DNA of 64,000 nucleotides from Larinioides sclopetarius (lineage: Eukaryota). Both the position numbers and the translations under genes were made by a program. Position 1 is the stretch's first letter, and the number at the start of each line of letters is the position of its first letter. Location: assembly GCA_964023285.1 (NCBI GenBank), contig CAXIEN010000093.1, positions 2,375,739 to 2,439,738 on the forward strand, given 5' to 3'. Positions 3,001 to 32,449 of this stretch are shown here, in pieces. A model generated the notes under the pieces. It saw only the letters and a program-made list of their open reading frames with translations. It was not told the origin of the DNA and ran no database searches.

Positions 3001-3631
3001 CATCAAAAAAGTTGATAGCATTCTTAGAAACATTGATAATGACAGGAACAAGACTGGTTTCTATTCTTCAATCGGATTAATTTGAATTTAAAAAGTTGTC
3101 AATCGAAAAAGCTCATGTCATATAAATGCTACCTAATGATTTAAAAAAATTTCAGAAGTATCAAAACTTCTAAATTATATCATTCTCTAGAGTGGCAGTT
3201 TTCAAATTTACAAGAACCCTGCATTCGACGAATTTCAATACATCCCACAACAAATTAGAATTGGGAAATGTCGTAAACATTAAGATTACAAAGACTCCTA
3301 TAAGAGGCACTCAAAAGACATATTAAAAAAAGGCCGAAGAAATCTGCAGTTAGAGTGGCTTCCAAACCCACCCACCCCCAAATTAATTAAAAACTAAAGA
3401 TATATAAAACCATCATTTCGTTTATATGCAGTCTTATGGTAGAATAACAAATATTTGTAATGCTATATTACATTTCTAATACACCAAATAATGATGCATT
3501 TCTATTTATCATAATAAAGAATTCAATTTTTTTTCTATTAAATTTTTAATTGAGTTAGAACTTTGCACCACTCTATTGTAGTTTACATAAAAAACGTGTT
3601 ACTTTGACAAAGTTCTTTGTTCAGTTAGAAC

Positions 3632-6600: not shown

Positions 6601-7693
6601 AAAATCACACACAAAAACTTATATGCGGTCAAGTTTGAAACCGTGATTTTCACTGATGCGACAGGAAAATAGAAGATATAATTTATCTTTATTGATAATG
6701 TGGTTAATTGGCTGCTTATTAAATACGATTCCATAATTAAAAATTATTTCAAAAATATCATCTTAATTTGTGTAATTCAAAAGACATAGAATACATTTAA
6801 AAAAAGATAAAAGAATAATTTCTAATAATGCGAATACTTAAATAAATATAATTTAGCATCCTTTCTGTGATCAAATTTTTGTTTACAAAATGCAAAAATG
6901 AAAATTTATAAATTTTTTTTAAACTCCAATTTGCGAAAATTTAAGTCGTCTAGTCTGAAAATTAAAAAGAGTATTTGTCCAATCTCGATTTTGTAATAGT
7001 TGCAAAAACGCGTTTTACGAAGAAAGAAAATATACGGCCCCTCAAGAAATGGGCGTGACCAATCGCTTGGACGAATTTTGAGGTTTTTTGAAAATATCTC
7101 AAAAACTATGGTAGATTTTTGCACAATTTTTTGAACATCGGCGTTTTATAATCTCAGCTTTGCTCCCATGTAAAAATTTCTCTATGTTGCAATTCACTTT
7201 TTTCAAAGTCATTTTAAAAATATTTAAAAAAATATTTAATTTTTTTTATTAATGAACTTTTTTCATGAAAAAGTGTAAAAAATAATCTTCTTTAAGGGCG
7301 TGAAAATTTTTTTGAAAAATATTTAATGCTTTTTGAGATATTTCTGAAAATTCCTTAAATTCAGTTAACATGGGAAAGGCCATTTTTTTCAAAACGCTAT
7401 AACTCTAAATTATCATCACATTTGCATGAAAATTTGTAAGATGGCTAATTTTATGACGGAGATTCGATTCAGCGAAAAAAATTGATAGCCGTAATGGGAA
7501 AATTTCAAGATAGCTATTAATTAAATATATTAATTAATTCGGTTAATCAATTTTTTTATCTAAGTAAACCTCTCCTCTTGATCAATTAATATAGACACTG
7601 GTTTTGTGAAGCTGTGATAATAAATACCAAAGTTACAGAGGTGTCCCATTTAAATAGTTAACGACTGTACAAGGTTCTAACTGCATTTTGGTA
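3632..7693. mobile_element. Roughly 4.1-kb element bounded by long inverted repeats of about 220 bp and about 90% identity (arms 3632..3855 and 7480..7693).
   Basis: The arm 3640..3855 (..aaatgggacacctctgtaactttggtatttattatcacagctttacaaaacc..ttgatcaagaggacaggtttacttagataaaaaaaatt..) is the reverse complement of 7480..7690. The similarity ends at cagttagaacc on both sides. The interior holds an 18-bp tandem repeat, a GC-rich patch and no long ORF. Confidence 0.55.
4524..4625. repeat. Tandem repeat of an 18-bp unit, ctatggaaataaatataa, about 4-5 units.
   Basis: Direct reading of the sequence. It is the source of the spurious repetitive ORF 4551..4811. Confidence 0.85.
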
Positions 7694-8298
7694 TATTTAC
7701 AAGCAAAAAAAATATAATTAATTCTTTTCAAATAAACTATGTATCCTTTAATTAAAAGCAATTTACTGAAATTATTAAATTATTAATCAAATTAAATCGT
7801 GAACAACAAAGCTTTTACTTAAAACTTAAACTCGCTTTTCTGAAAAACTTGCATACATTTAGAACCTTGTCATGCCAAGGCACTGAAATATATATGTGCA
7901 GGAAAACTTTCTCTGCGCAAATTGGAAATGAAATCGAAGGAAATTTCGAATTTACTTTTGCAAACTTTTAATTTCCTGGATGATGATAAACTGATTTGGA
8001 AAACTCCAATAATGAAACTGTAGCAGCATTGAGGCCATTTTTACTTTCTTCTAAACTTGAAATGGAGAGTTATGGAATGTATAGTAACAAAGGCCGTTAT
8101 CCCCTAGTTCCTGGGTTAGACACAGAATAGTTCACACCGAATAAGCGATTTCACAGATAATGCATGCATATACAACAATGAGATAAATCATAGATTCACC
8201 AAACAAGAGGTCCGAAAATAAAAAACTTGCACGATGAGAAAACACTTGAATATCAACAAACAGGAGACGGAAGCACTAGTTGCCAATAGGATGCAGCT

Positions 8299-9660
8299 AC
8301 TTTCTTCTATAAGAAGAAAGGATTGGAATCGTGAAAACTTTCGACCTCCGTTTTTTGATGGATTTACATGTTTTGTGAGGTCCTGAACACGATTCCACAA
8401 TTTTTAAAAATTGTGTGTCTGTCTCTGTGCTGTGTCTAACACAAATTTTGTGGGCGCACTAGTACAAAAACTACTAGACAGAATTTAATGAAATTTCATA
8501 TTTAGTTGTATTTTAACATAACTTGGTGCTGATTAGATTTTGGCGTAGATCACTCAACAGGTGGCACTGCTATTCTGTTTCTTCACGATTTTTTGTATCC
8601 ACTCTACTTCAAAAACTAATAGGAGAAATTCGATGAAATTTTGTATTTAGTTTTGTCTTGACTTAAATTAACGTTCATAAAATTTTTGTGTAGATCGCTT
8701 GACAGGTGGCGCTGATATTTCAATTTTTACTTTCTCGTATAGAGAAAGTATAGTAATCGTCAAAAAATTCGAACTCGAGATTTTGGCGAACCTCCACGTT
8801 TTAGATCTCCTTGAGTCCGAAAAACACAATTTTGGAATTATGTCTGTCTGTGAACACGATAACTCAAAAACTATTATAGCTACGAAGCTGAAATTTGGTA
8901 TGTGGTCTTTTTACATGATTTGTAAGATTCTATCAAATTTTGGGCAACTTCCGCCTGTCTGTCTGTCCGCGTTCATGTGAACTCAATAACTCAAAAACTT
9001 ACATAGCTAGATAGATAAAATTTGATACACAGTTTTCTCATCATAAATGCCTGTCCGTATAAAATTTTGGGCCAAATCCGTCAAAGGGCTGACCGTCAGG
9101 CGGTCTGTATAACCCCATATTTGCAAAATTTATAGCTCTTAAACCCTTTGGTCTACATCTATAAAATTTAGTATGACTTATGCTAATAAAAAGTGTAAAC
9201 GTGTGTAAAGATTTCGCCCCATTCGATTAAGTAGAAGGGGTATAATTCATTAACCAAATTTATAATACGCATGCATGCGGAGAACGTCGTTTTGTGAGCA
9301 AATAAAAGGGTTGCTATTAGGAATTCCTAGGTGGTTTTTTCTTCCGCTTTGGTTCCGTTTTTCTCCCTTTTGGTGAATTCTGATAGCGATTGTGTTATTT
9401 TAATCACGTGAAAATGACGTTTCGCGCATAGAGCAGATTCAAAATTTTTGTCAGGTTTATAGTTCTCACAGTCGGTGGATTTTTTTTATCAACGATGGAG
9501 TATAGGAAACGGAGAATAATTCAGGGGAACTATACGAGAAAGTTTAGGGAAGGCCACTTCCACTGGTTTCATAAATTTTTCAATATTTGTTTTTAGTATA
9601 TATCGGTTTTAATCATATAATTATATAGAAGAAAGTTTTGTGATGGCCACATCATTGTAG
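8299..9660 (+). mobile_element. Family-1 hairpin-initiated repeat, copy a. An 836-bp sister element is nested inside it at 8731..9566.
   Basis: The 5' end is ctactttcttctataagaagaaagga..gaatcgtgaaaactttcgacctccgttttttgatgg. Two internal subrepeats of about 110 bp each end in gatcgct(c/t)aacaggtggcgctg. The element resumes with tttcataaatttttcaatatttgtttttagtatat...tatagaagaaagttttgtgatggccacatcattgtag at 9567..9660. Confidence 0.7.
8731..9566 (+). mobile_element. Family-2, a diverged sister of family-1, nested inside family-1 copy a.
   Basis: It starts with its own hairpin tttctcgtatagagaaagtatagtaatcgtc and a 5' region collinear with family-1 (gaactcgagattttggcgaacctccacgtttt). It ends ctatacgagaaagtttagggaaggccacttccactgg. 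Inside are gtctgtctgtgaac...ctcaaaaact...gaaatttggtatg modules, which also occur at 4735..4935. Confidence 0.5.
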
Positions 9661-9938
9661 TTTCGAATTGCTTTGGCATCCTTTAATTTTCATTCGTGGA
9701 ATTTTTTGTTTTAATTATGAACACTTATTTTTAAAGTAAATTTAATTTATTATTAATTCTTGATTTTTTTTAAATATTGATTGAATTAAGTTAGAAATTT
9801 CATGCATCACAAGTGTTTTTGACAGTTTTAATTAATGATTCTTGGTAAATACTATGTAAACTTTTATTTATATTTATCCTTTTTCTATATGTAATATCGA
9901 TAAAAATCCAATTGCATAATTCTTTAAAAAAATTTTAG

Positions 9939-10100
9939 GTTGCTCTTTATAGCCGTCAAGAACTTCATATTAGGTCTGCTTCTAATTTCCTTTTGTCTTA
10001 TGCTGCTTACCATGAGGAAACACGACCATATTTAGAAAAATATTTTGAATCGTGCACAAGATTGCCTTCAGATTGGATGGAAGTTGCTGATTTGTATCAG
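9939..10100 (+). CDS. TROVE-domain (Ro60/TEP1-family) gene, internal exon (54 codons).
   Basis: The acceptor is aaaaaattttag and the donor is CAG|GTGAAT. The open frame reads VALYSRQELHIRSASNFLLSYAAYHEETRPYLEKYFESCTRLPSDWMEVADLYQ. The order of the following exons matches the TROVE domain of Ro60. Confidence 0.55.
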
Positions 10101-10862
10101 GTGAATACAGTTTCATGTATAATTTTTTCTTAAGTAATAATTAAGATTTGTTTTCTGTGAAATTTCCATTAACATTTGTGTCTTCTTGAGAGACAAATGT
10201 ATGTTTCGAGTATGCCATGTTTAATTACTGCAATTACATGCCAGTAGTTTTTATCTTCAGTCTAGCTTGAATCTGAAAGCTAAATGGCGAATTCAATGAT
10301 TTCATTGATAAATTAATTATCAATTATTATTAATTTTAAAATATCAAAGTAGTGACACTAAATAATTGTATTGTGTTTGAGCTCATTTTGGAAAATGTTA
10401 TTTTCTTGTATGTTTGAATTGATGAATGACACATTTTAGTACAAAAGCAAATGCACTTACATCTGAGTGTACTGTACAAACATAAGTCATTAAGTCTGCT
10501 GCTCTTTTGTGTCGATTCCTTAGGTTTATTTCAAAATTGGAATTTTTTTTAGCCTTTTAATAGAGTTTTTGTGCATGAGTTGCTGAAGCAAATATTCATA
10601 TTCGAAATAATTATTCATAACAAATTATACAATGTGATATTCAAGGGTTTTTTAGAAATAAAAGTGTTTTTGTTGAATTTCTATTCGTAATTGGTGAATT
10701 TTTGTTTCACATTGAACTCTGAAACAAAGTTTTCTCATTTTGCTTCTGATTTCTTCAGTATCCAGTGTTTGTTTCTTATTGCATTTGTTTCGAAGTTTTA
10801 AGGCCTTTTATCAGTTTTTAGTTTGATATGTTTTCATGCTTAGATCAAATTCTTTTTTGTAG

Positions 10863-10959
10863 GTTTTTTCTGATTCAAGATTAAAAAACAGATCTCTGCC
10901 TTCTGCTCTAAAGAAAGTTATGGCCAAAACCTTTCCAAAATTTGATGAATATCAATTAG
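10863..10959 (+). CDS. TROVE gene exon (VFSDSRLKNRSLPSALKKVMAKTFPKFDEYQL), ending in phase 1.
   Basis: The acceptor is ttcttttttgtag and the donor is TTAG|GTATGT. The exon is in phase with its neighbours. Confidence 0.55.
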
Positions 10960-11099
10960 GTATGTTCTGAAACGCTACACTCCTGGGTTTCAAAATCAAT
11001 TGCAACTTTGACATATCTTAATTTTTATTTTATTTAAACAATAATAATTTTATATATTATGGCTGCTGTGTTTTTATTGATTCACATGACTTTCTATAG

Positions 11100-11217
11100 C
11101 TAAATACAATAGAGAGAAAAAAGCCTCCAGCACAAAAGGTTTCACTTTAAAACAGCTTATACGACTTTTACATTTGGATTCTCCTGCAAAGGAAATCATG
11201 TGCCTCCTTGGAAAAAA
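11100..11217 (+). CDS. TROVE gene exon (AKYNREKKASSTKGFTLKQLIRLLHLDSPAKEIMCLLGKK).
   Basis: The acceptor is tttctatag and the donor is AAAAA|GTATGT. The segment TKGFTLKQLIRLLHL aligns with the Ro60 segment NGWSHKDLLRLSHL as recalled from memory. Phase 1 in, phase 2 out, consistent with the flanking exons. Confidence 0.6.
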
Positions 11218-11418
11218 GTATGTGAGATTTTATAGTTTAAACTAAAATAATGTGAGATTTTCAGTTATCTTATTTAGTGATTTTCACTCATTAAAATAAA
11301 ATTTGAATATGTCTTCAGAGAAAATGAAAGTTTTCCATTTCTTTGTTGAGTTAACTGCATTGTATTTATTTTATATTCACTATTGCATATGAAATTTATT
11401 CTTAAAATGTGCATTTAG

Positions 11419-11576
11419 ATACCCAGAAACTGCAGAAGCCTTTCGAAAAAGTAAGTTGCCTGGAATATGGGATTCCAGAAGAGCTGGACAACGAATGAAA
11501 CTGCCTGTACCCGAAACATGGGAGACACAGATATCAGCTCATGGAAATAAACCTGAAATTTGGGAACAATTAATAG
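11419..11576 (+). CDS. TROVE gene exon (YPETAEAFRKSKLPGIWDSRRAGQRMKLPVPETWETQISAHGNKPEIWEQLI).
   Basis: The acceptor is gtgcatttag and the donor is ATAG|GTACAG. The frame is continuous only when spliced to the previous exon (aa+a gives K). Confidence 0.6.
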
Positions 11577-12233
11577 GTACAGCATTTGTTGTTAATTGAA
11601 CTAAATTTTCCCAATACAAAATGCAATTTTTTGATTTTTTTGTTTAATATTTAGTAGTTTTAGAAATTATAAATTTAATTAATTAAACAATTTCGTTATT
11701 ATTTAGTATAAGCTAATTATTATTAATATAAATAATGTCTTGTTATTTATTTTTTTTAGTGTCCAAAGATATTATTTCTTTCGATGTGTAATTTTTTTTA
11801 CATCAGATAAAAAGGATTCTGGAGATTAGATTGGATTGTATCATTTTTATTTTGGCATTAATATTATGTAATTGATAAATTAATCAAATTCTTCTTCAGT
11901 CCTGATAATAATTTAATAAAAATTGTATTTTTGGAGCTATTTGGCTGTCTTTAATTATATGAAAAGTATATGCTGCATTAATGAGTATTTTCAATTATAT
12001 ATGTCAAAAATATGCACACAGTAAGTTTCCTTCTTATTGTTTTTTTTCTTGTTTTAATACCTAATTCTTACTAGTAGTTGTTCCGTTTAGGCTCAGTAGA
12101 ACCATTAATAGTTTATAAAAACTATAATTCCTTTTCATTTAATAAGAATTAATTAATGTTAGAATTTTTCTGTGGTACTAGTTTTCACATTACAAAGCTT
12201 ATACAATTTTTTATCATGCTTTTCTCTATTTAG

Positions 12234-12343
12234 ACCATTCTAAACTTCCGTACATGGCTATGCTGCGCAATTTAAGAAACTTGATATTATCAGGCATTTC
12301 ACAAAAACATCATGACAAGGTGTTGAAGCATTTAAAAAGTAAA
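12234..12343 (+). CDS. TROVE gene exon (DHSKLPYMAMLRNLRNLILSGISQKHHDKVLKHLKSK).
   Basis: The acceptor is ttttctctatttag and the donor is a perfect GTAAGT. The motif LPYMAMLRNLRNL corresponds to the Ro60 motif PLTALLRNLGKM, recalled from memory. Confidence 0.65.
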
Positions 12344-15188
12344 GTAAGTGAACTATATTTAGTTTTTTTTCCATTTTGGATACTTTTGTGATTTCATATT
12401 TTTTAGGTAAAATCAAAAATTGATGACACAATATATTTCACTATGATTACTTAATTATTTAGCAAAATTCAATAGTAATTTTTGCACTTGTTTTGGCATT
12501 TATATCATTGTGACACTAGTTGCAGAATACCTGATTCGTTAGATTCCTTTGGTTGCTATTTAAACCAACTGCACGCACACTCATTGACCTCATCGTTAAT
12601 TTGTAACAATTGTCTCCATGGTGTTTTTTGAGTTCACCGAAGAAGTAGAAATCTCATGCAGACAGGGACTTCCAAACATGTCAATAAAAATGAACAATAT
12701 TTGAATTAAAAATTTAAATGAAGTATAAAGTGACAATTGAGTAGAGCCGTAATGAAGGTGGAACATCATTACGGCCCTTCTTTCTTTAAGAAATATAAAA
12801 AAAACATTGTGAATATATCCTTAAAAGTGTGATTTATTGTTAAACAGGATAGAGCGTTTTGATACTCCTTTTAGAGTGTACTGTTACTATTTATTTTACG
12901 ACCATACAACTGCAATTGATTATGCTAATTAGTTGATAAAATTTGCATAACTGGATTTAGAAAGTTAATTATAGGAAAAAGGAAATTATATGTGCAGTCA
13001 AACCTTGGTTGAAGAGATAAAATCTTCCTTAAAGGTCTATCTGCAAGTATTTTCAAAGGTCTATCTGCAAGTATTTTCTCTATAGGAGTTGCCTCAAAAT
13101 CAGTTAATCATTTCTTGATATCCATATAATTATGTATTTATTTTTTTACAACAGTGCTCTGTGCACTGATTGTTAAAAGGAAATTAGTGAAAACCATTAA
13201 TCTATAACTAAACAGGGTAGGCTACTGAGAAAATTAAATAGTACAATCTTTAAACTTGAAGGCATTAAACCGCCTACTAGAAAAATACAACTAGAATACT
13301 AGTTCAATATGAATGTTAGAAAAAAATCATTCGGTAGCAACTTGCTGATTCACCAACCATTTTCATCAGTTTATAATCACACAGCAGTCATTTCTCCATC
13401 TGTTTTCTGTGAGTGAAGGTCTGAAGATTATACAGTATCTATTTGTGAAACGTCACAATCCACAGGAATCATCATAGATTAATCGGCGAATCAAAGAGAG
13501 AGCTGTCAACGTCAGTGAGCTAAATCAGAATTTGTAAAAAGGTAAAGATAGCAGGGTTCAAATGTTGATCTGTTTGCAATTTGATCCAGAATCGCTGAAA
13601 TACTCAAAGTTAAGAAATATATTTAAACAACGAGAAAATAATTGGCGGGAAATTCAAAATATGGGTGCAATATGCAACATTTTGCCATGCCTATATAAAA
13701 AAGATTCGTGAGAAAACTTGAAAGCGATAAAGAAATGAGATATGTTTCTAAATTTTAATTGATTCTTATTCTGATTAAGTTGTTATTAAATGTTGGAGTG
13801 ACTGGAGGCAAAGCAGGCAATTACGTGTGATCCCAAAGGATGTACATTAAGGGGAAAAAATCGCTTAATAGACAGAACACACAGCCCCATGTCCTTGTGC
13901 CTTCTACTGTCTGGTGGTCAAAATGGGTGAATGGATATGGTTCAGCTTAATAGACATATAAACTCCACAAAAATAACAAATAAATTTTGTTTCGTGCCAA
14001 TAATTGTTTTTACTGGGTTAGATTTCCCATAGTGTCTGCCTTGGATGCAATAATCAGAAGGCATGTTTGCATTGAGGAAATAACAAGCTAATAAAATATA
14101 TAAAGCTTATAATGTTAATATATACAGTTTTCAAAATGATTTTTAACTGATCATATAAAATGCTGTTTTTAAATTGCTATGCATAGACATTGAATAAAAA
14201 GACCAGTGCATTTACATTTCCCTCTCTACAACTTGAGCTGTTTTGCTCAGTAATGAATAAAAGCATTTGCTATTTCTCTCTGACTCTCTCAGCATAAATT
14301 ATGGGAAAATGAAGACTCCAGATTTTTTCCAAAAACAGTAATTCTGAGTAAATGATTACATTCACATTGTTTGATTTTTACATAATTACAGATAGTAGAT
14401 ACATAAAATATATTGTTTCTACTTTTATATATATGGATAGTTTACTTAGATGGCCTGAAATTCGTTAACAGAGGAATAGACTTCAGTGTTTGGTAAAATA
14501 ATGGGAAATGAATGTTTGGACAGAATTTATACTGCAATCTTAAAACGAAGTTATATATATTTAAAATCGATTTGTTAAATATGTTATTTCAATTTCAGTG
14601 AGGCAAATATGTATATTTAAATATATCTGAAGTTTAAAAATTCTCACCACGATATTAAGTTATATTCACAGATAGAACTTGCATATATTTGTGGGTAAAA
14701 TTTGTTTGACATTTAGAATACAGACATTAATTATACAATTAAGAAAAAAGGTGGAGGTGCCATCATATTGATGTCTTGCCCCATTAGTAGATTTACATCT
14801 GGTCGCCCCTAATTATATATGAAATGTCATTTTTGCTTACTATGTGACTCTTGATACTTTTAAAATTTACTTATTTTCTGTAATCTGTAGCAATCTTTTA
14901 AATGAAATCTTTAAAAATAACCACTGCGACAAGTCTCAGATGATATGGTTTGTCTACTTTACTATAAATAAGACATTACTTCCCCAACTATAGATCTCCT
15001 CATTTGAAATTATTGGCATATCACTATATACTTTGTATATTGTAGTACTGATTATTAACATTTAGTTTCTATTACATAATTGTTTCATTAATGTATTTAA
15101 TTGCTGACAAATGCTTGCATTTTTAAGTAACAAATATTATACAATAATATCAGTAATTAGTATAATGCATAATTTACTTTAAATATAG

Positions 15189-15349
15189 GGTGCTGTTATC
15201 AACAGTAGACAAACTCCTCTTCAGTTTTTTGAAGCATTCAAAGTCCTTGAGGATATTAAGGATGCATATTATTTAAGGCATGTTTATAGAGATAGCAGAA
15301 TAGGTGAACCACATTGGAAAAAGGCACGAAGGGACAAAATAAAGGAAAG
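15189..15349 (+). CDS. TROVE gene exon (GAVINSRQTPLQFFEAFKVLEDIKDAYYLRHVYRDSRIGEPHWKKARRDKIKE).
   Basis: The acceptor is aaatatag and the donor is AG|GTGAGT. It ends in phase 2 and joins the next exon exactly (ag+a gives R). One or more exons between 12343 and 15189 were probably not found. Confidence 0.55.
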
Positions 15350-18300
15350 GTGAGTTGAGTTTATATATATTTGCTGAAATAAGCTTTTTTATACCCTTTA
15401 TAAGTGTCTGGTAAGTATACTTACCACTATATTCATTGTTTTCTAATTTATTTTTTAAGTTTGACATGAATTCTTGGCAGCTTTTTGGATGAAACAAAAA
15501 TTGATATGTTCCATTTCATTTTCTCAAACTATAGCCAAGTTACTTGATAATTAATTAATAATCAACAAAATTAATTTTATGGAATTTTCTAAATAAATCT
15601 CAATCCAAAGCCATTTTATTATAAAAATTGATTCTTTAGAAGGTTAACAATACACTTCCATGAAAAATTAATTAAATAACATTGTATTAAAAAAACAGAT
15701 TAAATTAATTTCGAAAAACTTTGAAATAAATCCACTCTAACAAAGTTTTGATGCAAGTGTGTGTATGAATTTCTGAAGTGTATTGAAGATTTTGCACATC
15801 ACTTTTGCATAAGTGAAAAGTGACTTAAACCTATAATGAAAATTCATTCACGAGGCATTTAGGATAACGACCAGAAATTGAGGAAGTAAAAGATATAAGC
15901 TTTTTTCCATTATGGCTATAAACACAGTAAGTTGATAAAGGATTTACAATCTTTATGAATGGTTTTCCTTAATTGTTTACATGCAGTTTTGTAAAAATAT
16001 TCTGGAAAATATGAAAATTTTCTTCAAAAATCCCAAATTTTCCCATGTTTTGCAGAACGTCTTTGAAATATTAAAATTTTACGGAAATATTCCATTAAAA
16101 TTTGAAGTTAATACTAGGAATATTATAGGAAAAATGAGAATTTATAGTAAAAAACTTTTTTTCTGTGCATGTGTTAGGCATAGTGTTGTTTTTGTTTCAC
16201 ATCTTCAAAGCCTGATTGAACAGCAACTTATGAAAATTCTAGTTGAGTACCATCACGGTTTGGAAAGATATCAGCATTGCAGTTAACAGATTTTCTGCTT
16301 CTCTCTAAGTGAAACAAAACAATGAGGTTTTTCACAAATTGCCATTTTTTAAACTTGAATTAACTAAAAAACTAAACTTGAACTTAAATTCAAATAATGT
16401 ATTTTATTTATAAATATGCCTAAGTATTAAGCATATTCGATTTTTATTAAATTCTGTAAAATTATTCGAAAATTCAAATTTAAAAAATATCAATTTATTT
16501 AAAAAACTTGTTATTTTGTTTCTGACTAGGAAGAATAGAAATTCTGCTCACGGAAATGCCAATATCTGTCTAAATCTTAATGGCATTCAACTTGAATTTT
16601 TATGTAAGTTGCCCTAAATATCTAGATTTGAAGTTATTGAGTAAAAGTTTTGCTCAATCTTGCAAATGTGCAGTATAAATTACTTACTAAAAATAATCAT
16701 GTTCCCTTAAATATTCAATCATTTTCTTCAAATTTGAATACAATGATTCTCTAACAAATTGTTAAATATTCTTCAAGTTTCGCATTGTTTGATTGAAAAC
16801 TCTACATGTTATAAACAAAAACATGCAGAAAAATTTAGGATTTTTTAAGAAAACATTTATATCTCCAGAATATACTTGCTCTTTTTATGAAACTGCATTC
16901 AAATAATGTGCTTATGACACAAAGCTATTGATGAATTTACAAGTTTTTATCAACTTTCTGTGGTAAGCCAAAATTTTTCTTTTTCATCAATTTCTTTAGT
17001 CCTCTAAATGTCATGACAGAATTCATCTCTGTAAAATATGAATTAGAATTTTTCTTTATATGGTTGAAATTCAAGGACAGTTGTTCGAGCTTTTCAAAAG
17101 GAATTCTACAAGTGTCCATATTCTTTTATTATCATATACAGGGTGCGTATGGTCATGGAAAGTGCTTAAAATGGCTTAGTTTTTATTTTTATTTTAGAAA
17201 AATCGTAAAAGTGCTTACTAATTATTCAAAGTTTGTATAAAGTGTTTATTCTTTTTCGTGGTACTTAAAGACTCATTAATTTTAACAATGAGTTTATGTG
17301 CAAGAATGTCACATAACTTTAACAGTTGATTTTCCACCATCCAAATAAATAGTTTCCAATGTAAGGTATGCTGTTTATGATTTCTGGATCTGTAAAAAAA
17401 AGAAAAAATAATGAATACTAAATTTTAATGAAAATAATTTTCTTTGATATTAAAGCATAGAGTTTTTTATGTTTATTCTCATGTAGAAAACAATAAATTT
17501 TTAAACTGTGCAATTAAATATACAATTTTAATTGTGAAATGTGCTTTAAGTTGTTTTTTAATAATTATTTTATGTATGAAAGTGATTTAGCATTCTAATT
17601 TTGTACCTCAATATGTTGTTACATTTGTATTTTCAGTTTTTCTGCATTTTGAAAATATTTTTCTGTGACAAGTTAATGAGAATATATTCAGTCATAATAG
17701 CTGTAAGATATATGCTAAATTTTTCTCCCATTATTTGTGTTTGATCAGCATTAAAGGTTTGTGAGTCCTTATTTTTTACTTTAAGATGCTTATAAAGTGC
17801 TTACTTTCCCCCTACAAATTTGAGTCCGCACCTTGATATAGTGTTTGACAAGTGAAACTAATTTAAGATTTTGTAAGGAAAGATAAATCCCTGTAATATC
17901 TGATAAGTTGGTTGTTGCTGTAACTAGTGAAATTCTTTATACCAGAGCAGAGCACTTCCATTATTGAACAAGTTTTGTTCTTATTATGATTTTTTCCCCT
18001 AGTCATTTAAATGGCCACTATCTGGACTTTATTTTAAAATATAATACTTGCTTTTTTTAATACTTTTTTAAGTTGTGAATTTGGAACTTAGCAACAACTT
18101 TCTAGTTCAAACAAAGCCATAAAAAAGAAATTATATTAAAAGGTTTTTTAATAACAAATTTTGAATTATGCTTTAATTACATACTTCAGACATGATACAT
18201 TCCCATAGAACGGCTGATTTCTGCTTTTTATATATCGAATTTTTTCATTCATAATTTTAGTTTATAAAATAGTTCTACAATATTTTTAATACCTCAAGCA

Positions 18301-18611
18301 CTTTTTGTATAAATTTATTCATTTTATTGATAAATTAATTATGCATTTTTATATCTATGCATTTACGTTTGGCAAGACTCATTATATTTAACGTTCCACT
18401 TTTATTTTATTGTTCCAAGGCTGTGTGTGTCATGTCTGATACTTTTGTTTATGAATGCATTTTGTGAGCATAGCTTGTGGAAGTTGGAAAAATATTTGTC
18501 TTAAAAAAGATTCAATATTTGAACTACACAATTCTTTTTTATTGCTTTTAAAGAAATTGCAATTTTAAAAATTGTGTGAGTTAGTTGGTAATGATTGTAA
18601 ATTTTTTCTAG

Positions 18612-18774
18612 AGCCAGTGATGTTTCAATGGATCTTGTTTCTGGTTATGAAGAGGCTGTTAGTGAAGCCCTTGAAATTTCTGCTCTTCATAATTTGCAGC
18701 CTATCCCTGGAAAAAGTTTGGTAATTTGTGATATACTTTTTCCATCGTCATTAGAGAAGGGGAAAAAGACCAAG
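18612..18774 (+). CDS. TROVE gene exon at the TROVE/vWA junction (ASDVSMDLVSGYEEAVSEALEISALHNLQPIPGKSLVICDILFPSSLEKGKKTK).
   Basis: The acceptor is attttttctag and the donor is AAG|GTAAAA. The segment PGKSLVICDI corresponds to the Ro60 segment TGKRFLLAVDVSASM at the start of the vWA domain. Confidence 0.6.
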
Positions 18775-18917
18775 GTAAAAATACTTGAAATATATTCTTT
18801 TGATTTTTTGATTTTGTTTTTCTTGAGTAAAAAAAAGCAAATCAGTATGCTTAATAAAACCTGCTATTAAACCAAAAAATTACATTGCTTGCATACACCA
18901 TCTAATGATATTACAAT

Positions 18918-20057
18918 TTAACATCACAAATCCGGAGTCATGGGACTTACGCATTTCTGGATTTGAGATAATTCTGAATCTTGGAACATTTCAATATTAA
19001 GAAGGAAAGTAAACATCATAAAATTGATAATTCATTTTAAATTAAAATAAATTTATTTATGACTTGTTTTTTTCCATTTATGAACATAATATTGTTTTTA
19101 TATTAATTGAAACACTTTTACAAAACATTTAATTTAAAGTGAGTTATTTCATTAGTTTTGGTTTTTATGATTAAGTAACTTCTCTTTTTTTTATGCATTG
19201 CCATTATATCTAACTCTGAAATAAATTCTCTTTGCTCAAATTCTTTTATTGTGGTATGCAAAACTTCCACTAATCTGTCGATTGGCATTTTATCTTCTAC
19301 TTGTGTTTCTCCTACACTATAACTTCTATTGGACACCAATATTCACCAACATGCTGCATATTTTGGCATTGATGAACTGGCGCCCTGTCAGGACTTTATC
19401 GTTGAACTTAAGTACTTCAAAGGTGCAATCTTTGGCAATTTTTTGTCCTCTCTATTCAACTAATTCAAAATTTCCGCTTTTTCTTTTGGGATCAGAATTC
19501 CTTTGAAATTGTTCTTTGTTCTCATGGAATATGGTTGCCGGACATAAATTGTGCCAAGCATTTTTAATCGTCAGGGTTTGGTATCCCATTTATCAAGTAG
19601 TATATCATCTCAGATAAGAGCAGTTCAACATTTGCAAGGGCTATTTTAGAAGCTGAAGCAAGACAGAAGCTGATAAATTTCTACAATATTCCATTCGTTC
19701 TAGGCAAATCCTCTTTGTGAGCCGGAAAGGAATTTGTGTGTGCATCTTTTTTGATAATATTTCTTACATTCTGGTTCTGGGCAATTTCATTTTGAGTGCT
19801 AGAGAGGGGAAAAAGAGGAAGATTTATTGTTACTCTACTAGTCATTACAATAGACCCCTGAATACTTTCATCGGACATCATTGTACCCATGATTGAATCT
19901 TCTCTTTCCTTGGATGGTTGTGATTGGTTTTTGCTGACTCTGAGCGCCAATTTGTTAGATAAAAGTTGGGATTCTCTGGGGTAAAGGGGTCGAGGAACAA
20001 AAAAGGTCAGGATTTTGGATCATTTCAAAGTCTGGATGTCTGAATTTGTGATATTCG
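18918..20057 (+). mobile_element. Family-4, a roughly 1.14-kb dispersed element, copy 1. It lies in the TROVE gene intron.
   Basis: Collinear with 25870..27003 at roughly 75-80% identity. The termini are (t)cacaaatc... and ...gaatttgtga, read as inverted ends. It carries decayed minus-strand ORFs (19118..19339 and 19681..19950). Confidence 0.55.
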
Positions 20058-20099
20058 GCCGTATTGATTGAATGCATAGACAAGAAATTGGTTTACCTG

Positions 20100-20460
20100 T
20101 TAAATATTATTTCACTTGTGCATTACAATTTTGAAGCTGTTGATCATTGTCCTAAAAAGAATAATATAAAAATACTTAAAATATATTCTTTTGATTCTTT
20201 TAGTTTTGAAAAAATTTATGCTTTATTTTGTATTTCTTCAGCACCCCTCCAATAAAAAATCAGCAAATTAAAATGTTTATTATATCCTGCTATTAAACCA
20301 AAAAAAACCACATTTTTTGCATATACTATCTATTGATATTGTTAATTGATTGATAATAGACAAGGAGTTGGTTAAACTGTGGTTGAACCTGTTAAATAAC
20401 TTGTGTATTGCAATTTTCAAGCTATTGATCATTGTCTTTAAAAGTCTATTAAAAGGGAAA
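20100..20460 (+). repeat. Local duplicates of the 3' exon/intron junction region of the TROVE exon ending at 18774 (two partial copies).
   Basis: 20140..20330 matches 18775..18900 (aaaaatacttgaaatatattcttttgatt..cctgctattaaaccaaaaaa). 20395..20450 matches 20105..20160 (ttgcaattttcaagctattgatcattgtc). Traces of translated similarity remain (..KILKIYSFD vs ..KILEIYSFD). Confidence 0.45.
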
Positions 20461-22154
20461 GAAGTTATAGATAGCTGTTTCTTTTACTTTCTTATAAATA
20501 ATACTGAATATTATGAAAAAGAAAGTAAAAATTATTTATTTAACAAAATAAGGATTTAAATCGAGAGTTTAATACTTAAAATTTAAAAAAAAATTACCCA
20601 GCTATCTGTTTTGAGTTTTGTAGATATGAAAATACGTAAAAATGCTGACTTGAACCACTTTTCGATACCTGGATACGAGTTCACAAGCAGTTAAGCAACC
20701 AGCTTTCTCTTAACTTTGTTTAAACATATCTCTGAGACTATGATAAAATGCTGAAATGTACATGACCTTATTAGTGTATGGGGCGCATTTTATTGATTGG
20801 GAAACTTTTTGCATGGGGACCATGTAAAAATTTAGTTATGTATTTCATATCTATTTAAAATTAATTCCTTGAACATTTTAATCGATTTCATAACATTCTG
20901 TAACTTTTTAGTCCAACTTTGTAATTTATAGCATATGTCTATGATCAATGTTTAAGGAATAAATGCGGAGGTCAGTTGGTTTTTGAAACACTCTATATAT
21001 AAGTTGCTTCGTACATCTGGTTTTGAATTTATGGAAGAAAAATTACATATGTAATAAAAATTAATTAACAAGTATTTACGTTCACTCACATAATCACTAT
21101 ATTTACTTCAAGCAAACATGACATAGGCTTGGAACAGAAAAAGCGGAAATCATGAAAAACATAAATGAAATTTGTATAATTAATTGAAAAATTAAATAAA
21201 TGAACTCTTTTACAAATCATACTTGAGATATTAAAAATACAGTGGAATTATTATAAAAAAACGATAATTAAGAATGGTAAAATCTGTTACCAAAAAGCGA
21301 AAATCTGCCTTTCTGTGTTTATGTGTCATGTTTGTTCAAATAATGCAATACTTCTTTAATTATGGATGTGTTTTCTGTAAGTTTTGCATAATTTGAATGA
21401 CAATTGTACATTATAATAAAAGAAAATTCATGGAAAACTTGAGGTTTTTTAAACAAACCTTCATATATTTTCCTCTGAAATATCTATGCAATTTTTTTGA
21501 AAATATCGCTAAGCCGTGCGCATAGCAAACAATGAACGTTTCAAATCATTATCAGCTTTTTGTGAAACCCGGTCAGTGGTTCCCCTTTTGGTCTTTATTA
21601 TTTTCTGATCAATTTCCTAAATACCCTCATGACCAAATCTGCTGTGTGAAATGTGTATTTTACTTAATTACTGATTGTGACTGATGATTTAAACCATACT
21701 TTTCGTATAAATTGCAAATTTTTTCAATTTTACAAAACATCCCTTAATTTTTGCATACCAGTGTATGTTGAAAGCAGTGTATAAATCGAAGAGAATGGTA
21801 CTTAAAAAGAGAGGAAGACAACAAACGAGCTTGTGGTAATGAAGTTCGGTTTCTTTTTAGATAGACTATAATCTGAACTTCTGAATCAATTCTGTGGTAG
21901 ATTGACAGAATTACAGTAATTAAAAAGATAATTTTTTCTGTTTAAAAACTTCAGGTGTATCAAATAAAAGGCTACCTTATAGATTACATGAAGGAGAGAA
22001 AATCTTAATTGCGATTAATTCATTCAGTTATCAGTGATTTTCTAAATTAAAAGTAAAAAAAAATTTGCATTGTTAATATTACAAGCTTAATCATTTTTGC
22101 ATAAAATTAGTGAGTTATGTATGGTTGATGATTGTGTATCCATTTTTTCTCCAG

Positions 22155-22310
22155 ATTTATAATCTTTGCATCATGATGGGACTCATGTGTCTGAAAGCTT
22201 GTGAAGATTGCAAAATGAATGTGATTTGCGGCAACTATTCAAACAAATTTGAGCTTGATGAGGATGTTTCCTTTTGTCAGTCAATAAAGGATGCTTGTGC
22301 TCAGTATGAA
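22155..22310 (+). CDS. TROVE gene exon, C-terminal part of the vWA domain (IYNLCIMMGLMCLKACEDCKMNVICGNYSNKFELDEDVSFCQSIKDACAQYE).
   Basis: The acceptor is ttttttctccag and the donor is GAA|GTAAGC. The motif LCIMMGL...MNVICGNY matches the Ro60 motif LIVCGMTSNGF...MLDMCGFD, recalled from memory. The roughly 100-aa vWA core that should lie between the previous exon and this one was not found. Confidence 0.55.
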
Positions 22311-22403
22311 GTAAGCTTTTAAATGTTTTATAAGACAATATCAATTCTGAGGTAGTTTTATTTTCTTCATTTACTTATTCTGTAATTTTAAATCAGCCTT
22401 GCT

Positions 22404-22942
22404 TTTACTTTCTTCTTTCCAATACTTTCTTCTATAAGAAGAAAGTATTAGAATCGAGAAAATTTTCGACCTCCGTTTTTTGATGGATTTACATGTTTTG
22501 GGAGGTCCTGAACACGATTCCACTATTTTTAGAAAATGTTTGTCTATGTGCTGTGTGTGAAACAAATTTTGTGGGCATGCTAGCGCAAAAACTATGTGAG
22601 AGAATTTCATGAAATTTTATATTTAGTTGTATTTTAACATAAATTGGTGCTGATTAGATTTTGCTGTAGATCGCTCAACAGGTGGCGCTACTATTCCGTT
22701 TTTTCACGATTTTTTGTATCCACTCTTCAACAAAAACTAATGGGGGAAATTTCATGAAATTTCATATTTAGTTTTGTCTTGACTAAATTAATGTTCTTAA
22801 AATTTTTGTGAAGTTCGCTTGACAGGTGGCGCTGCTATTTCAATTTTTTCATAAATTTTTCAATATTTGTTTTTAGTATATCTTGGTTTTAATCATATAA
22901 TTATATAGAAGAAAGTTTTGTGATGGCCACATCATACTAGTT
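22404..22942 (+). mobile_element. Family-1 repeat, copy b (intact, about 535 bp).
   Basis: Near-identical to the family-1 consensus, from the hairpin tactttcttctataagaagaaagta to the 3' end atatagaagaaagttttgtgatggccacatcatactag. Confidence 0.75.
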
Positions 22943-23253
22943 TTATTTGTTAGTTTAGCCTTGTCTCTAACTCTTTGTTCATATTCCAAGTCTAATATTA
23001 GTCTCATCATTATCTTCATGTATTTGCTATTTTCTTTAAAAAAAATTAAACTAATTTAGTGGCTGAATTTTAAATTTAAAAGGCTAAAATGCACATTTTA
23101 TCGATTTTTATAGAAGATCTTGATATTGTTTTGTAAACCAAGTATTTTTTTAGGTAGATAGTAGTTGATAATAAATTGATTATAAATTATACAGCTCTCT
23201 TACATAGTTTTACATGTTTTTATTTGCTGAATATTCATTCTTTTTTCCTTTAG

Positions 23254-23349
23254 AATAAAAATGAGAATACAACTAGTGATAACTCTGGAAAAGCTGCAAA
23301 GAGTGTTTTAGAATATTATCTAAAACAGCATGTTATTCTAAGAGAGAAA
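23254..23349 (+). CDS. Probable further exon of the TROVE gene (NKNENTTSDNSGKAAKSVLEYYLKQHVILREK). Whether it belongs to this gene is not certain.
   Basis: A strong acceptor (ttttttcctttag) and a perfect GTAAGT donor flank a 96-nt open frame. It is phase-0 compatible with the previous exon. It extends the protein beyond where Ro60 ends. Confidence 0.4.
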
Positions 23350-25869
23350 GTAAGTGAATTAATTATCAATGGCTAAAGAAGTTCATAAATGTGATTTATG
23401 TGATAGACTTCTGATTTATCTTCTGATTATTATTTTTCTGTAAAATTTTATAAAATAGTTTTTAAAATTTAAAAAAATGAATGTTACTGTTAAGTTTTGC
23501 AACTTTTAAAATGAATTTTTAATGTTCTTTATGTACATAATATGCTTCTTTGGGCTTAGAAACCTTACTTTCCATAAAAAGAGGCATTAATTAAAAAAAT
23601 CACGAATTTATTGAATGGTGTTTACAATATAAGAAAAGAATTTTCCTGTTTAATATATTTATTCTCAAGTTTACAATCACTTTTCAATCGTTTATAAAGA
23701 GAGGAAAATTTTCCAATTTTTTTTTAGGTTCTCAAAATTACTTTTGCTTTGTATTTGCTTTTTTTCAATAAAACATCCTTGATAGAGAAAAAGTTTCATT
23801 CTGGTAAATAAAATTGCAGAGCATTTTGTTGATTTCATGTGATTGGGTATTATTTGCTTTTTTATATGGATCATTTTCTTAGAAACAAACCATCATCTGC
23901 AACTTATGGTTCGCAATACAGTTTATACAATTTGAAGCTACGACACTTATACACACAGTTTCATGAAAACTTCATAGAAAAAGATTCAAGATCTGAGGTT
24001 AATGCTGAAATGCATTAGTGAATCCAGGGGGCTACAATGAAACTGAAACCCCCCTCCTGGAATTGAACCAAAACATTTTTATTTCATTTCAAATTGCTAC
24101 AGCTGTTTGCTCTTAATCTCCTTAATAAAAAGTGACCATATGGCTTTTTTGCTTGAGAGGTTAGACTATTTTTCTTCTTGCCTAGTTATTTCAGTTTAGT
24201 TTTAGAGAAAAAAAAATTGCTAGTTATTTCAACATATTTTTCCTAAACAAAAGTATTATTCTAATTATCATGTGCATAAATTCTATAAAGTTAAAGGATT
24301 TTGGTTTAAATAAACCACACGAGTTTTAACTTTCATTCGATGTTGCAAAATTTTATGACCTCAGTCTCCTTCCCAACCCAACTCCTGGATTTACAACTGA
24401 TACACGATGAACAGAATATTGAATCTTTTTTTCTCCTCTCTGTAGAGAAAGCAAATAAAAAATTTCAAATTCTGTTAAATTGCTCTAGAGAAAATAGATT
24501 TATTTTTATGACATTTCTAAATTTAACCGGATTTTCAAAGTATTTGTTTCAATTATTTAAATTTTATTTTATTGCAATTTTTTTCCTTGCTTATTTTTGT
24601 ATTTTCTACTTTTAGCCTTAATATATTTCATTATTCTATGTAACCGAGAAAGATTTTATCAGTTTATATTTAATAATACTTCGTTTAAATGCTTGATATG
24701 ACATGTAAGGACCGATTTTATCTAAGGAAAAAGTCTTTATCTCTTCATAATTAGATTTGCCTTAATAATTTTATCTAAACATTCATGATTGTTAAATACG
24801 ACAAAGTTAATAAAGACTGGAAATCAAAATTATAATTGATACACAGTAGTTTTTATATGCTTTCAAAATGGAGCTATCTTTACAAGCCTAAAGCTGGATA
24901 TTCCCTGCTGTTCCACTTCACATTTCTTTAGAATACAGGATGTCAGACATATTCATCAATATGTAAAATGGCAAAGACTAACTGTGAATTGGAGGCAAAC
25001 CAGATTGATTTGCTAATGGAATGGATGGTCGTATAAATGAAATATGATTCTTTGAGGTGGGCGATAAATCATAAGTGTGGGGGAGGTTAAGAAGGGGTGC
25101 TTATATTTGGAAACCATTTTAAAGCACCTTAAAAGTGCTTAATTTTGCAAAAAGATGCTTAAAAAGTGCTTAGTTTTTTTTTAAAGAAATGTAAAGAAAA
25201 CATTCTTCTTTCAAAAACTCAGTTATTGAATACAAAATAGCAAAAACATAGGCATAATACTTTGTTTACCATGGGTGTAAAGAAAAGAAAACCTAGTGTA
25301 TCAAGAATAAAAACCGAAATCGAAGAGTTTTGGGAAGGAATTCAAGGTAAGATAGATCCAAAGGAATCCAGTCAATGAAAGCCCAAAATGGGGTGGGGTG
25401 TGTGGAAAAAAAAACACTCAATCATAGGGTTTTGAAAATTGATACTTTTTCTTGAAGAGCTGCTGCTGAACATACAGAAAATCTCCAATCCTGAGGGGCG
25501 GAAGCTCGTGAGGACATCTTGTGTTTTATCCTGCCTCTTTAGTTTTTCATCAATATTCAAAAACTCTTCCATTTTCAAATTTCAATTGATTTAACAAATT
25601 AAAAAGCTCGAAATTTGCTACCAATGAATGCTTCCGTTTTTCTTTTAGCTTCAATAGTTTCTGAGTAATGCATCTTAAATTTTGCACTCATCTTGGATTT
25701 GTCATCTTTTTTTAGATGTGGATTTCTTATAGGAAAATCTACCTATTGCAATAAATTGCAATGAATTGATTTCATGAAAATTTTTGTAGATCTTCATCGA
25801 TCATGACCCCGAGAACCCCTCACTGCTCTTCATTAAAAAGTTTATACTATATATATACAGATACAAGTG

Positions 25870-27001
25870 AAAGTCACAAATCTGGAATCGTCAGGACTTC
25901 AGCAATTCCAGGATGTGGGATAATTTGGGATCTTGGATCATTTCGATAATAAGAAATGAATTTACCATCAAAAAACATATCTTCTATTTAATTTTTTTAA
26001 ACTTATTTTTTACTTGGCTTTTTATTTTTTAAATATAATTAATTTTATTTCTTACTCTTTTCAATGTTTTTGCAAAAGATTTAATTTAAAGTGAGTTATT
26101 TCATCAGTTTTGGCTTTTGATTAGGTTACTTTTGAGTGTATTCTCATTATGTCTGGTTCCAAAATAGTCTTTTCTCAAATCCTTTTATTGCTGTGTTCAA
26201 TACTTCCTCTAAGATGTTAATTGGCATTTTATCTTCCACTTGTGTTTCTTTTTTCGCTCTTTTCACTATCGGATACAGAGGTTTTCGAGTTTATCAACAT
26301 CATTCTGTGTTGGCAGCATTGTTGGGGCTTTATAATTGCAATGCAGTACATCAGCTTTGGCAATTTCTTGTCTTCTCGACTTAACTTTCTCTAGTAAGTC
26401 AAAAATTTCAGCCTTTTCTTTTGAGATCTGAAATCCTTTGGAATCAGTATCCATCCTTTCTTCGTCTTTATCGAATATGGTTGCCGGCCAAAAATTGTGT
26501 CAAACATTTTTCATCACCGTGTTTCTAATCCTGTTCCATGCTTTATCTGCCCTCCAGTCTTTGAATTGTCTCCCCTTTATTGAAAAAACTGAGCATTTCT
26601 TTAAGGAATTGTGGTTTTTAATGGTACTTTAATACCTGCCTTCTATATTCTATTCGTTTTGGGAAAATTTACGTTATCATTCAGTACAGAAGGGGAGCGT
26701 GAGTTGCGTGTGCATCTGATTTGTAAACATTTCTTACATTCTTGGACTAGTTTGTTTGGTGCTAGAAAGGAGAAAGTATTGTATCGTGATTTGTTACAAT
26801 AGACCCCCTCCTCATAATACCTTCGTTGTAGGCGTGGTTAATTCCTTTCCCTCTTCTGTTGGTTATAGCCGTTTCTTCTTACTCTGGGTGGTGATTAATT
26901 ATGTAAAAATAAGATTTTTTTCTCCGAAAGTTTACAAGAATGAAAAACTTCCGATTTTTGTAGCGTTCAGGATTTTGGACATCTGGATTTGCAATGTTGG
27001 A

Positions 27002-27003
<2 letters not shown>
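25870..27003 (+). mobile_element. Family-4, copy 2, inserted into composite element X. It is followed by a (TA)n microsatellite.
   Basis: Same structure as copy 1. It is flanked by the two halves of element X (25710..25860 and 27040..27690), which are contiguous in the other copy at 32450..33000. Confidence 0.55.

Positions 27004-27032
<29 letters not shown>
27004..27032. repeat. (TA)n microsatellite of about 14 units.
   Basis: tatatatatatatatatatatatatata, directly after family-4 copy 2. Confidence 0.9.
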
Positions 27033-27036
<4 letters not shown>

Positions 27037-31672: not shown

Positions 31673-32449
31673 CTTCAATGCCCATTTTAAGACTGGGTAA
31701 ATTCTTTTAATTTTTTTTGTAAATGTGAGATGTTTTTATTGAAATACTTTGCTTTTCTATCTAATTTGTGTAACAGGGCTACCACCTGATTCTTTCAAAA
31801 GCTTTTAGACTGATTTTTCTGTATCCTTCATTTCGTTATTTTATCAAATATTAATTTGTTTTTGAATGGCCTTTTCTATTTGATCTTCATTATGAAATAA
31901 AAGGAATTAAAATGCAACCTATCTTCCAATGTACTTGGTTCTAGTTAAGTTTTATTTATTTTATTCTCGAAAACTCATATTAGCCATGTTTGTAATATTC
32001 TCTTTTCCCCAATTAATTCCTTTCTTTCTTTGAAAAAAGCAAATTAATTTGAAATCAAAACATGCTTCAGTATTTCTTTATATTACATGGAGTTTAAGCT
32101 TTTCTTTTGTCCTATGTTAAGTGAATTATAATAATTTTGAAATTGATTCAGTTCGGAAATATTATCTCTTATTTTATTGAACACATTTGAGCTCATTTCT
32201 TTCAAGCTCTTTTTTTTAGCATTAAACCTCATTTCTCCAGAGGAAAGAATATTTTTTGAAATGACTGAATGATTAGTTCTTATGTAATTTTTTTGCTAAG
32301 TTTCTTTTATTTTAGTGTGTCAAATTTATTTCATGATATAAAAGTTTATTTTCACAATATTGTGTTATGTGGATACCTTGGAACAAAATATCATGAATAA
32401 TTATAGCATTCTTTTATTATAATTTGTAACTGAAATAAAATGAAAGTTG

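Follow-up and report, generated by a model that had tools for sequence, protein, structure and literature searches.

Telomerase protein component 1 (TEP1), also known as vault protein p240, is an RNA-binding protein of vaults and telomerase and acts as the vault-RNA-binding subunit. In human TEP1 and in the Stegodyphus dumicola protein (XP_035227346.1), a TROVE domain is followed by a vWA-like domain whose MIDAS motif is degenerate. Ro60 and bacterial Rsr also combine TROVE with vWA and bind small RNAs; Ro60 (~540 aa), however, ends after its vWA domain and retains a functional MIDAS (DxSxS...T...D). Short protist TROVE-vWA proteins of ~600-690 aa, such as the Acanthamoeba castellanii "TROVE domain containing protein" (P0034) and relatives of Tetrahymena p80, likewise end after the vWA domain and carry a canonical MIDAS (DVSGSM ... 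GGGTD ... SDM).

The locus described here occupies positions 9939-23349 (+ strand) of the window, by which we mean the whole 64,000-nucleotide stretch of Larinioides sclopetarius DNA that was analysed. In all likelihood, it represents nine consecutive internal exons of a spider TEP1 orthologue that is neither truncated nor rearranged. TEP1 is already known; the window is simply smaller than the gene and cuts both of its ends. When joined, the nine exons give a single open frame of 407 aa that matches the Pfam TROVE profile (PF05731) at E=3.4e-80 and 270.8 bits (cut-off 23), far past chance. About three quarters of TROVE is encoded here, together with the front half of the adjoining vWA-like domain; coverage of the TROVE profile lacks its N-terminal quarter, whose exons lie outside the window. 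These results bear out the sequence-only reading in so far as it described a gene combining TROVE with a vWA portion, built from nine exons in consistent phases, and the four motifs it quoted were located on the + strand at 11141-11176, 12245-12283, 18706-18735, and 22215-22238.

The best database matches are named "telomerase protein component 1" by their source, with identities of 70% for Trichonephila clavipes, 69% for Nephila pilipes, and 68-70% across orb-weavers. Next come TEP1-like proteins that are full-length, at 2010-2612 aa: Stegodyphus dumicola XP_035227346.1, the 2612-aa protein of a Logan transcript contig (P0124), and Tachypleus; with Lytechinus included, the long TEP1 matches span 2000-2900 aa. 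Identity to the full-length Stegodyphus protein is 50% over 325 aa, with ungapped exon junctions. Nothing essential differs from TEP1: the middle 407 aa alone fall inside the window, and the orb-weaver models in databases are fragmented. The protist proteins are 34-44% identical across TROVE and the first vWA half and have the same domain order, whereas the spider gene groups with the long TEP1 proteins of animals and has no MIDAS; unlike in p80, no second vWA half was found after the last exon in the window or in the corresponding T. clavipes (L001) and Caerostris extrusa (L002) loci. Bacterial TROVE/vWA_Ro60 proteins are distant (~27-36% identity over 57-86% of the query).

All nine exons lie on the + strand. 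Exon A (9939-10100, VALYSRQELHIRS...), the first TEP1 exon in the window, starts in phase 0, encodes TROVE sequence 76-87% identical to the T. clavipes and Caerostris proteins, and has its counterpart at L001 18515-18676. TROVE continues through exons B (10863-10959; L001 20265-20361), C (11100-11217, FTLKQLIRLLHL), D (11419-11576, MKLPVPETWETQIS), and E (12234-12343, LPYMAMLRNLRNL), and its helical part ends in exon F (15189-15349), which also encodes a linker. The Pfam TROVE match terminates in exon G (18612-18774), which contributes strand 1 of the vWA fold (family HMM positions 389-436), while exon H (22155-22310, IYNLCIMMGLMCLKACEDCKMNVICG...) encodes vWA helix 1 and the strands after it (positions 444-474). 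Exon I (23254-23349, SVLEYYLKQHVILREK) encodes the central part of the vWA domain, aligning to FPFDYLEDLI..IDNFIILSDM, and closes in phase 0 on the donor AAA/GTAAGT.

Each exon is preceded by AG and followed by GT, leaving 18/18 splice sites intact. All nine borders are kept in T. clavipes, and those of exons C-I in Caerostris, where A and B lie upstream of the examined locus; exon I has counterparts at L001 32107-32178 and L002 12526-12624. A Caerostris gene model (P0121) joins exon I to exon H, and when exons G-I were used on their own as a protein query, the sole match was an 82-aa Caerostris fragment (an exact look-up of the Caerostris protein P0002 gave no location). Comparison with T. 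clavipes over 392 codons yielded a dN/dS of 0.15, showing purifying selection. A decaying TEP1 fragment, left as a pseudogene after a rearrangement that removed both ends, could account for the repeat-rich introns and for a window that contains neither end of the gene. Such decay is nevertheless very improbable, given nine open frames, undamaged splice sites, the low dN/dS, and an exon order, exon borders, and neighbour gene conserved across four spider genera.

The vWA domain is where the present analysis departs most from the sequence-only reading, which had placed a gap of ~100 aa, corresponding to the vWA core with its MIDAS, between 18774 and 22155, and had taken 23254-23349 to be an exon beyond the end of Ro60. 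Exons G and H abut in the family profile, with G ending at position 436 and H starting at 444, and their junction (aa 323/324) is gapless against the Stegodyphus (P0126) and Nephila (P0122) proteins. Every homologue has these two exons side by side, so there is no lost vWA core. The MIDAS site itself lies in exon G, at 18730-18744, and reads D-I-L-F-P rather than D-x-S-x-S; the exon aligns to GKTVVFCDVSGSM of family members. In the family alignment, DILFPSS falls on DVSGSM, and exon I falls on GGGTD-FPFDYLE..IDNFIILSDM, inside the vWA domain. Both errors arose because the alignment had been made by eye to Ro60, which is only distantly similar. A degenerate MIDAS was seen in 14/15 further long TEP1 sequences inspected; its absence from the TEP1 vWA domain is thus usual among animals and no sign of lost exons. 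Without this metal-binding motif, metal-dependent ligand binding at the site is not expected.

These alignments also decide against a Ro60 orthologue that lacks exons and carries a lineage-specific extension at its C-terminus. The two families share the order TROVE then vWA, and Pfam vWA_Ro60 weakly matches relatives of the spider protein. A PDB search, however, gave no Ro60 chain at E<=1, the close homologues are all TEP1, and the exons are complete; Ro60 ends after an intact vWA domain, whereas the spider MIDAS position is DILFP and the homologues go on for ~1650 aa. With exon I in mid-vWA, TEP1 homologues, and gapless exon junctions, the Ro60 reading is refuted, and we assign it next to no probability. 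Of the explanations offered earlier for exon I, a longer TEP1-like protein has stood, the closest full-length relatives being TEP1 proteins of 2000-2600 aa, while the lineage-specific extension has fallen.

For the TEP1 orthologue, the question then becomes where the gene continues. The BLASTP alignment with Stegodyphus is gapless over the G/H and H/I junctions and stops exactly at ...SEK, after which the Stegodyphus protein proceeds with LDHIIYLRC..., the remaining vWA, and then DUF4062, NACHT, and WD40; ~1650 residues follow the exon I equivalent. In the window, an intron begins at 23350 (+ strand) and runs through 64000 and beyond the window edge (at least 40.6 kb), and searches with the family HMM, long TEP1 proteins, and an Araneus ventricosus protein (P0258) detected no TEP1-like coding past 23349. 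Searches of L001 and L002 likewise found no vWA second half, NACHT, or WD40 downstream of exon I, and when the intervals after exon I were compared among the three spider loci, both pairwise and three-way, no coding block proved to be conserved. These empty searches first suggested a truncated spider protein, an idea that was dropped because of the full-length Stegodyphus protein and a continuation beyond a neighbouring gene in A. ventricosus.

That neighbour is a leucine-rich-repeat (LRR) gene of ~1240-1290 aa at 50385-57473 on the - strand, with coding blocks at roughly 57473-54717, 54074-53253, and 50729-50385 (splice borders approximate). It includes open frames of 924 aa and 274 aa, matches Pfam LRR_8 at E=2e-108, and encodes a protein 97.5% identical to that of the A. 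ventricosus LRR gene. A convergent LRR gene also follows the TROVE exons in L001 and L002, and one with like position and strand is present in Stegodyphus, where the partial TEP1 gene model spans 340 kb and encloses an oppositely oriented LRR gene of 1235 aa. The >40-kb intron after exon I would hold the entire opposite-strand LRR gene.

In A. ventricosus, the closest available genome, window positions 56049-63708 are colinear with positions 1-7425 of the corresponding locus (L003), with flanking DNA 80-94% identical. This comparison covers the LRR gene and the DUF4062 part of the A. ventricosus locus, whose TROVE exons would be placed upstream of the LRR gene. A next exon, J, is found at L003 11078, 9.6 kb beyond the point where the LRR gene starts, behind a phase 0 acceptor (ttattag/GTAGAT). 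Here, P0258 ("Telomerase protein component 1", DUF4062) starts with VDHVIVLR; its residues 3-100 correspond to the second half of the vWA domain, and the locus goes on to DUF4062 and a P-loop NACHT. DUF4062 (a NIR/TIR-like NADase), the NACHT ATPase, and WD40 form a single polypeptide in Stegodyphus and lie downstream of the orthologous LRR gene in A. ventricosus. By colinearity, the next L. sclopetarius exon is expected ~3.4 kb beyond 64000, past the LRR gene, and the orthologues suggest that exon I would be spliced to exon J in this species. The remaining exons, encoding the vWA second half, the DUF4062/NIR NADase, the NACHT ATPase, and the WD40 propellers, would begin a few kb past 64000.

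An alternative to this reading is that orb-weaver TEP1 has undergone fission or has a short isoform, giving, wholly or as a major isoform, a stand-alone small-RNA-binding TROVE/half-vWA protein that ends just past 23349, with the NADase-NACHT-WD40 part made separately. Public gene models of T. clavipes, N. pilipes, Caerostris, and A. ventricosus all break at or near exon I. Moreover, read-through past the exon I donor gives ...ILREKVSELIING followed by a stop, and in all three loci a stop is met within 4-10 codons, so a short product might still be made; V-S-E/D-L after the junction is common to the window and Caerostris. The split models are faulty, however: the last T. clavipes exon is a piece of a mariner-like transposase, and the 41-aa N. 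pilipes tail is unconserved. In each of the three species, a good donor (AAA/GTAAGT, AAG/GTCAGT) is kept at the same phase 0 site, the continuation exon of A. ventricosus begins behind a phase 0 acceptor rather than with a start codon, a vWA fold cut mid-sheet is unlikely to be stable, and Stegodyphus expresses a single long protein spanning the nested LRR gene. We therefore consider fission unlikely. If true, it would mean that a huge intron with a nested LRR gene might have functionally split orb-weaver TEP1.

With a continuous TEP1 gene as the preferred reading, functional expectations may be drawn from studied relatives. The protein may bind small Pol III RNAs through its TROVE/vWA part, as passages of PMC3762200 (citing Poderycki et al., 2005) and of PMC2193651 describe, and could signal through DUF4062-NACHT-WD40 (bioRxiv 10.64898/2026.05.01.722283). 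An Rfam scan of the window reached threshold for no family, vault RNA included, and a tRNA scan of the window gave zero matches. As for the vault itself, MVP was absent from arthropods in a 2013 survey (PMC3762200). The biological weight of the locus is small, as this is a conserved housekeeping-type gene; its practical use is as a warning and a minor correction to annotation. In spiders, TEP1 extends across tens to hundreds of kb with a gene nested in one intron, and it is this length and the nested gene that cause orb-weaver annotations to fragment it, one piece ending in a transposase fragment.

Upstream of exon A, as the sequence-only reading had anticipated, the N-terminal part of TROVE lies outside the described stretch. 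In other orb-weavers, the upstream exons encode about 155-365 aa. A very permissive search of the window with T. clavipes, Caerostris, and N. pilipes peptides recovered only chance matches, so that 1-9938 yielded no N-terminal exons; these probably sit upstream of window position 1. Among the introns and flanks, a Pfam scan of seven long non-LRR open frames gave zero matches. The interval 18775-22154 does hold the transposon-related insert and local duplication previously noted there: the insert, at 18912 to ~20060 in the intron between exons G and H, is related to an element at 25862-28592 and is flanked by a duplication in which 18763-18912 matches 20154-20340. This transposon-derived insert is intronic filler and not lost coding sequence.

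The window is AT-rich, intron-rich animal DNA (G+C content of about 29%) whose best protein matches come from orb-weaving spiders; its levels of identity to an Araneus ventricosus contig mark the source as an araneid spider near to that species yet distinct from it. With borders set to the nearest AG and GT, nine exons were defined at 9939-10100 (A), 10863-10959 (B), 11100-11217 (C), 11419-11576 (D), 12234-12343 (E), 15189-15349 (F), 18612-18774 (G), 22155-22310 (H) and 23254-23349 (I). The consistent phases and four motifs recorded for them in the sequence-only reading were recovered in place; joined, the exons form one open frame of 407 codons, and the peptide matches Pfam TROVE with E=3.4e-80. 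All nine recur with identical borders in Trichonephila clavipes, and the borders are the same in the Caerostris extrusa locus from the third exon on, the retrieved sequence starting downstream of the first two. Comparison with T. clavipes gave a dN/dS of 0.15 (dS=1.36) over 392 aligned codons, indicating purifying selection. Pseudogene status is contradicted by the open frame, the conserved borders and this ratio.

The gene is an already known one, TEP1, and the earlier suspicion of a TEP1-like gene was correct. The database proteins most similar to it carry the source name "telomerase protein component 1": those of T. clavipes and Nephila pilipes are 70% and 69% identical, and that of Caerostris 70% across the portion available. 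Next after these, an exhaustive HMMER search ranks full-length TEP1 proteins of 2000-2900 aa, from Stegodyphus dumicola (XP_035227346.1, partial at 2010 aa), Tachypleus tridentatus (2281 aa) and Lytechinus (2542 aa), along with an arachnid-like Logan transcript contig of 2612 aa. Among solved structures, only two chains of one "TROVE domain-containing protein" were matched (E=1e-5), and no Ro60 chain was matched at E<=1. Together, these comparisons place the gene, as judged by homology, on the TEP1 branch and not the Ro60 branch. A Ro60 identity is contradicted by the TEP1 homologues, by the absence of a Ro60 chain match at E<=1 and by the finding that no exons are missing.

The vWA core had been thought to lack exons between 18774 and 22155; in both profile and protein alignments, however, exons G and H are contiguous. 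On a family profile built from 25 complete short members, exon G occupies positions 389-436 and exon H positions 444-474. In the multiple alignment, GKSLVICDILFPSS from exon G pairs with GKTVVFCDVSGSM and IYNLCIMMGLMCLKACEDC from exon H with LDIAILLGLMCQDACEEC, and the intervening loop is shorter by only about 8-10 residues; the junction at residues 323/324 is gapless in BLASTP against the Stegodyphus and Nephila proteins. The MIDAS position is thus present in exon G (18730-18744), where it reads D-I-L-F-P instead of D-x-S-x-S. The corresponding residues are DLLNY in Stegodyphus, DLTDN in the Logan transcript and GIMSS in Tachypleus, and D-x-S-x-S is kept in one of 15 further long TEP1 sequences inspected. 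Judging from these residues, a degenerate MIDAS is normal for animal TEP1, unlike the protist short forms, which keep DVSGSM; such degeneracy speaks against the vWA domain binding ligands through a metal.

A normal intron, enlarged by a transposon, accounts for the 3.4 kb between exons G and H. The transposon and local duplication previously noted in 18775-22154 are both borne out: a piece of about 1.1 kb (18912-20060) is related to an inverted-end element at 25862-28592 (arms at 26019-26103 and 28399-28483), and beside it 18763-18912 matches 20154-20340, a duplication that takes in the final 12 nt of exon G. No Pfam domains were found in two scanned open frames of the element.

Exon I, formerly read as lying beyond the protein's usual end, aligns inside the vWA fold, to GGGTD-FPFDYLE…IDNFIILSDM, a segment spanning a loop, a helix and the fourth strand in mid-fold. 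It is conserved in T. clavipes (32107-32178 of that locus), where the public model omits it, and in Caerostris, where the gene model P0121 links it with exon H. Searches with the family HMM and three long TEP1 proteins, together with a three-way locus comparison, detected no further TEP1-like coding after exon I in the window or in the T. clavipes and Caerostris loci. In the Stegodyphus protein, the residues matching exon I (…VLSEK) lead directly into LDHIIYLRC…, the rest of the vWA domain, DUF4062, a GPPGGGKT NACHT domain and WD40 repeats. With this continuation as query, an Araneus ventricosus "Telomerase protein component 1" (P0258; 58% identical, DUF4062) was retrieved. Its first genuine exon, encoding VDHVIVLRASG…, starts at position 11078 of the A. 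ventricosus contig stretch behind ttattag|GTAGAT in phase 0, which fits the phase-0 end of exon I.

The right-hand end of the window is colinear with this contig (nucleotide identity of 94% in coding and 80-82% in non-coding sequence), and the colinear flanks reach window position 63708, equivalent to contig position 7425. On this register, TEP1 coding is expected to resume about 3.4 kb beyond the window, so the intron after exon I would exceed 40 kb and host a nested gene. The supposed missing core and C-terminal extension arose because the gene was compared with Ro60 and because the window is smaller than the gene.

The nested gene, which follows exon I in the window, T. clavipes and Caerostris, is a convergent leucine-rich-repeat (LRR) gene on the minus strand (50385-57473; Pfam LRR_8, E=2e-108). 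It is the orthologue of the A. ventricosus LRR gene (97.5% protein identity), whose start codon lies 9.6 kb before the continuation exon. The window copy is complete or nearly so (about 1240-1290 aa); a signal peptide is probable, the C-terminus is hydrophobic, and the protein may be chaoptin-like. Within the 340 kb spanned by the Stegodyphus TEP1 gene model, the other strand carries an LRR gene of 1235 aa. The long intron with its nested gene is common to Stegodyphus and the araneids examined, and opposite-strand nesting is kept in T. clavipes, Caerostris, A. ventricosus and Stegodyphus. An initial reading as a truncated spider protein was overturned by the Stegodyphus continuation, the A. 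ventricosus exon and the orthologous LRR gene.

TEP1 is fragmented in all four orb-weaver annotations: the T. clavipes model has 601 aa and a mariner-like transposase last exon (29835-30065 and 3599-3862 of its locus), that of N. pilipes has a tail of 41 aa that lacks support, the Caerostris gene is divided between models of 646 aa and 82 aa, and P0258 is an orphan C-terminal piece. That all four split the gene at the exon I region, and that translation past the exon I donor would reach a stop codon within 4-10 codons, would suit either a true split of the orb-weaver gene or a short isoform that stops after exon I. This is nevertheless improbable, as the T. clavipes and N. pilipes models are plainly defective (a transposase fragment and an unconserved tail, respectively), the exon I donor consensus is conserved, and the continuation exon carries an acceptor and no start codon. 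A continuous TEP1 gene is thus preferred, and a corrected orb-weaver exon model and the conserved nested LRR gene are useful by-products.

By homology, the window would encode the "p80 homology region", which in mammals is cited as sufficient for vault and telomerase RNA binding and for vault association (Poderycki et al. 2005, as cited in PMC3762200); Tep1 loss destabilises vault RNA (PMC2193651). The rest of spider TEP1 would form a STAND-type module of DUF4062/NIR, NACHT and WD40, and recent work showed that the DUF4062 of human TEP1 has NADase activity (bioRxiv 10.64898/2026.05.01.722283 and 10.64898/2026.09.04.749371). Orthology suggests that spider TEP1 may share RNA binding, vault association and an NADase role. 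Full-length TEP1 is kept under purifying selection in spiders and horseshoe crabs, despite a 2013 survey that found major vault protein in no arthropod (PMC3762200); in chelicerates TEP1 may act in vaults or in some other role.

N-terminal exons upstream of 9939 were a reasonable expectation, but they do not lie inside the window. In other orb-weavers, the sequence preceding VAL[FY]SRQEL ranges from 155 aa in the T. clavipes model to 364 aa in that of N. pilipes, and these species show good conservation of the two exons next upstream (…ISEMPVYSF… and MQFLN…PEFILK); none of this sequence was detected in 1-9938 at E up to 200. The intron before exon A thus exceeds 9.9 kb here, versus 2.4 kb in T. 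clavipes.

The stretch 1-9938 holds dispersed-repeat copies and one pair of 198-nt inverted repeats (3662-3859 and 7475-7672; 87% complementary, 3.6 kb apart). The pair could mark the terminal inverted repeats of a transposon, or a single repeat present twice in opposite orientations. The dispersed repeat measures about 0.5-0.65 kb and contains a 145-nt segment duplicated in tandem; it occurs at 8298-8945 and 9558-9663, 22423-22945, 37751-38290, 40393-41100 and 57555-58019, and inverted at 49351-49651. It gave no tRNA or Rfam match and is a candidate MITE or SINE-like element. One copy lies inside the intron between exons H and I, and another just upstream of the LRR gene start.
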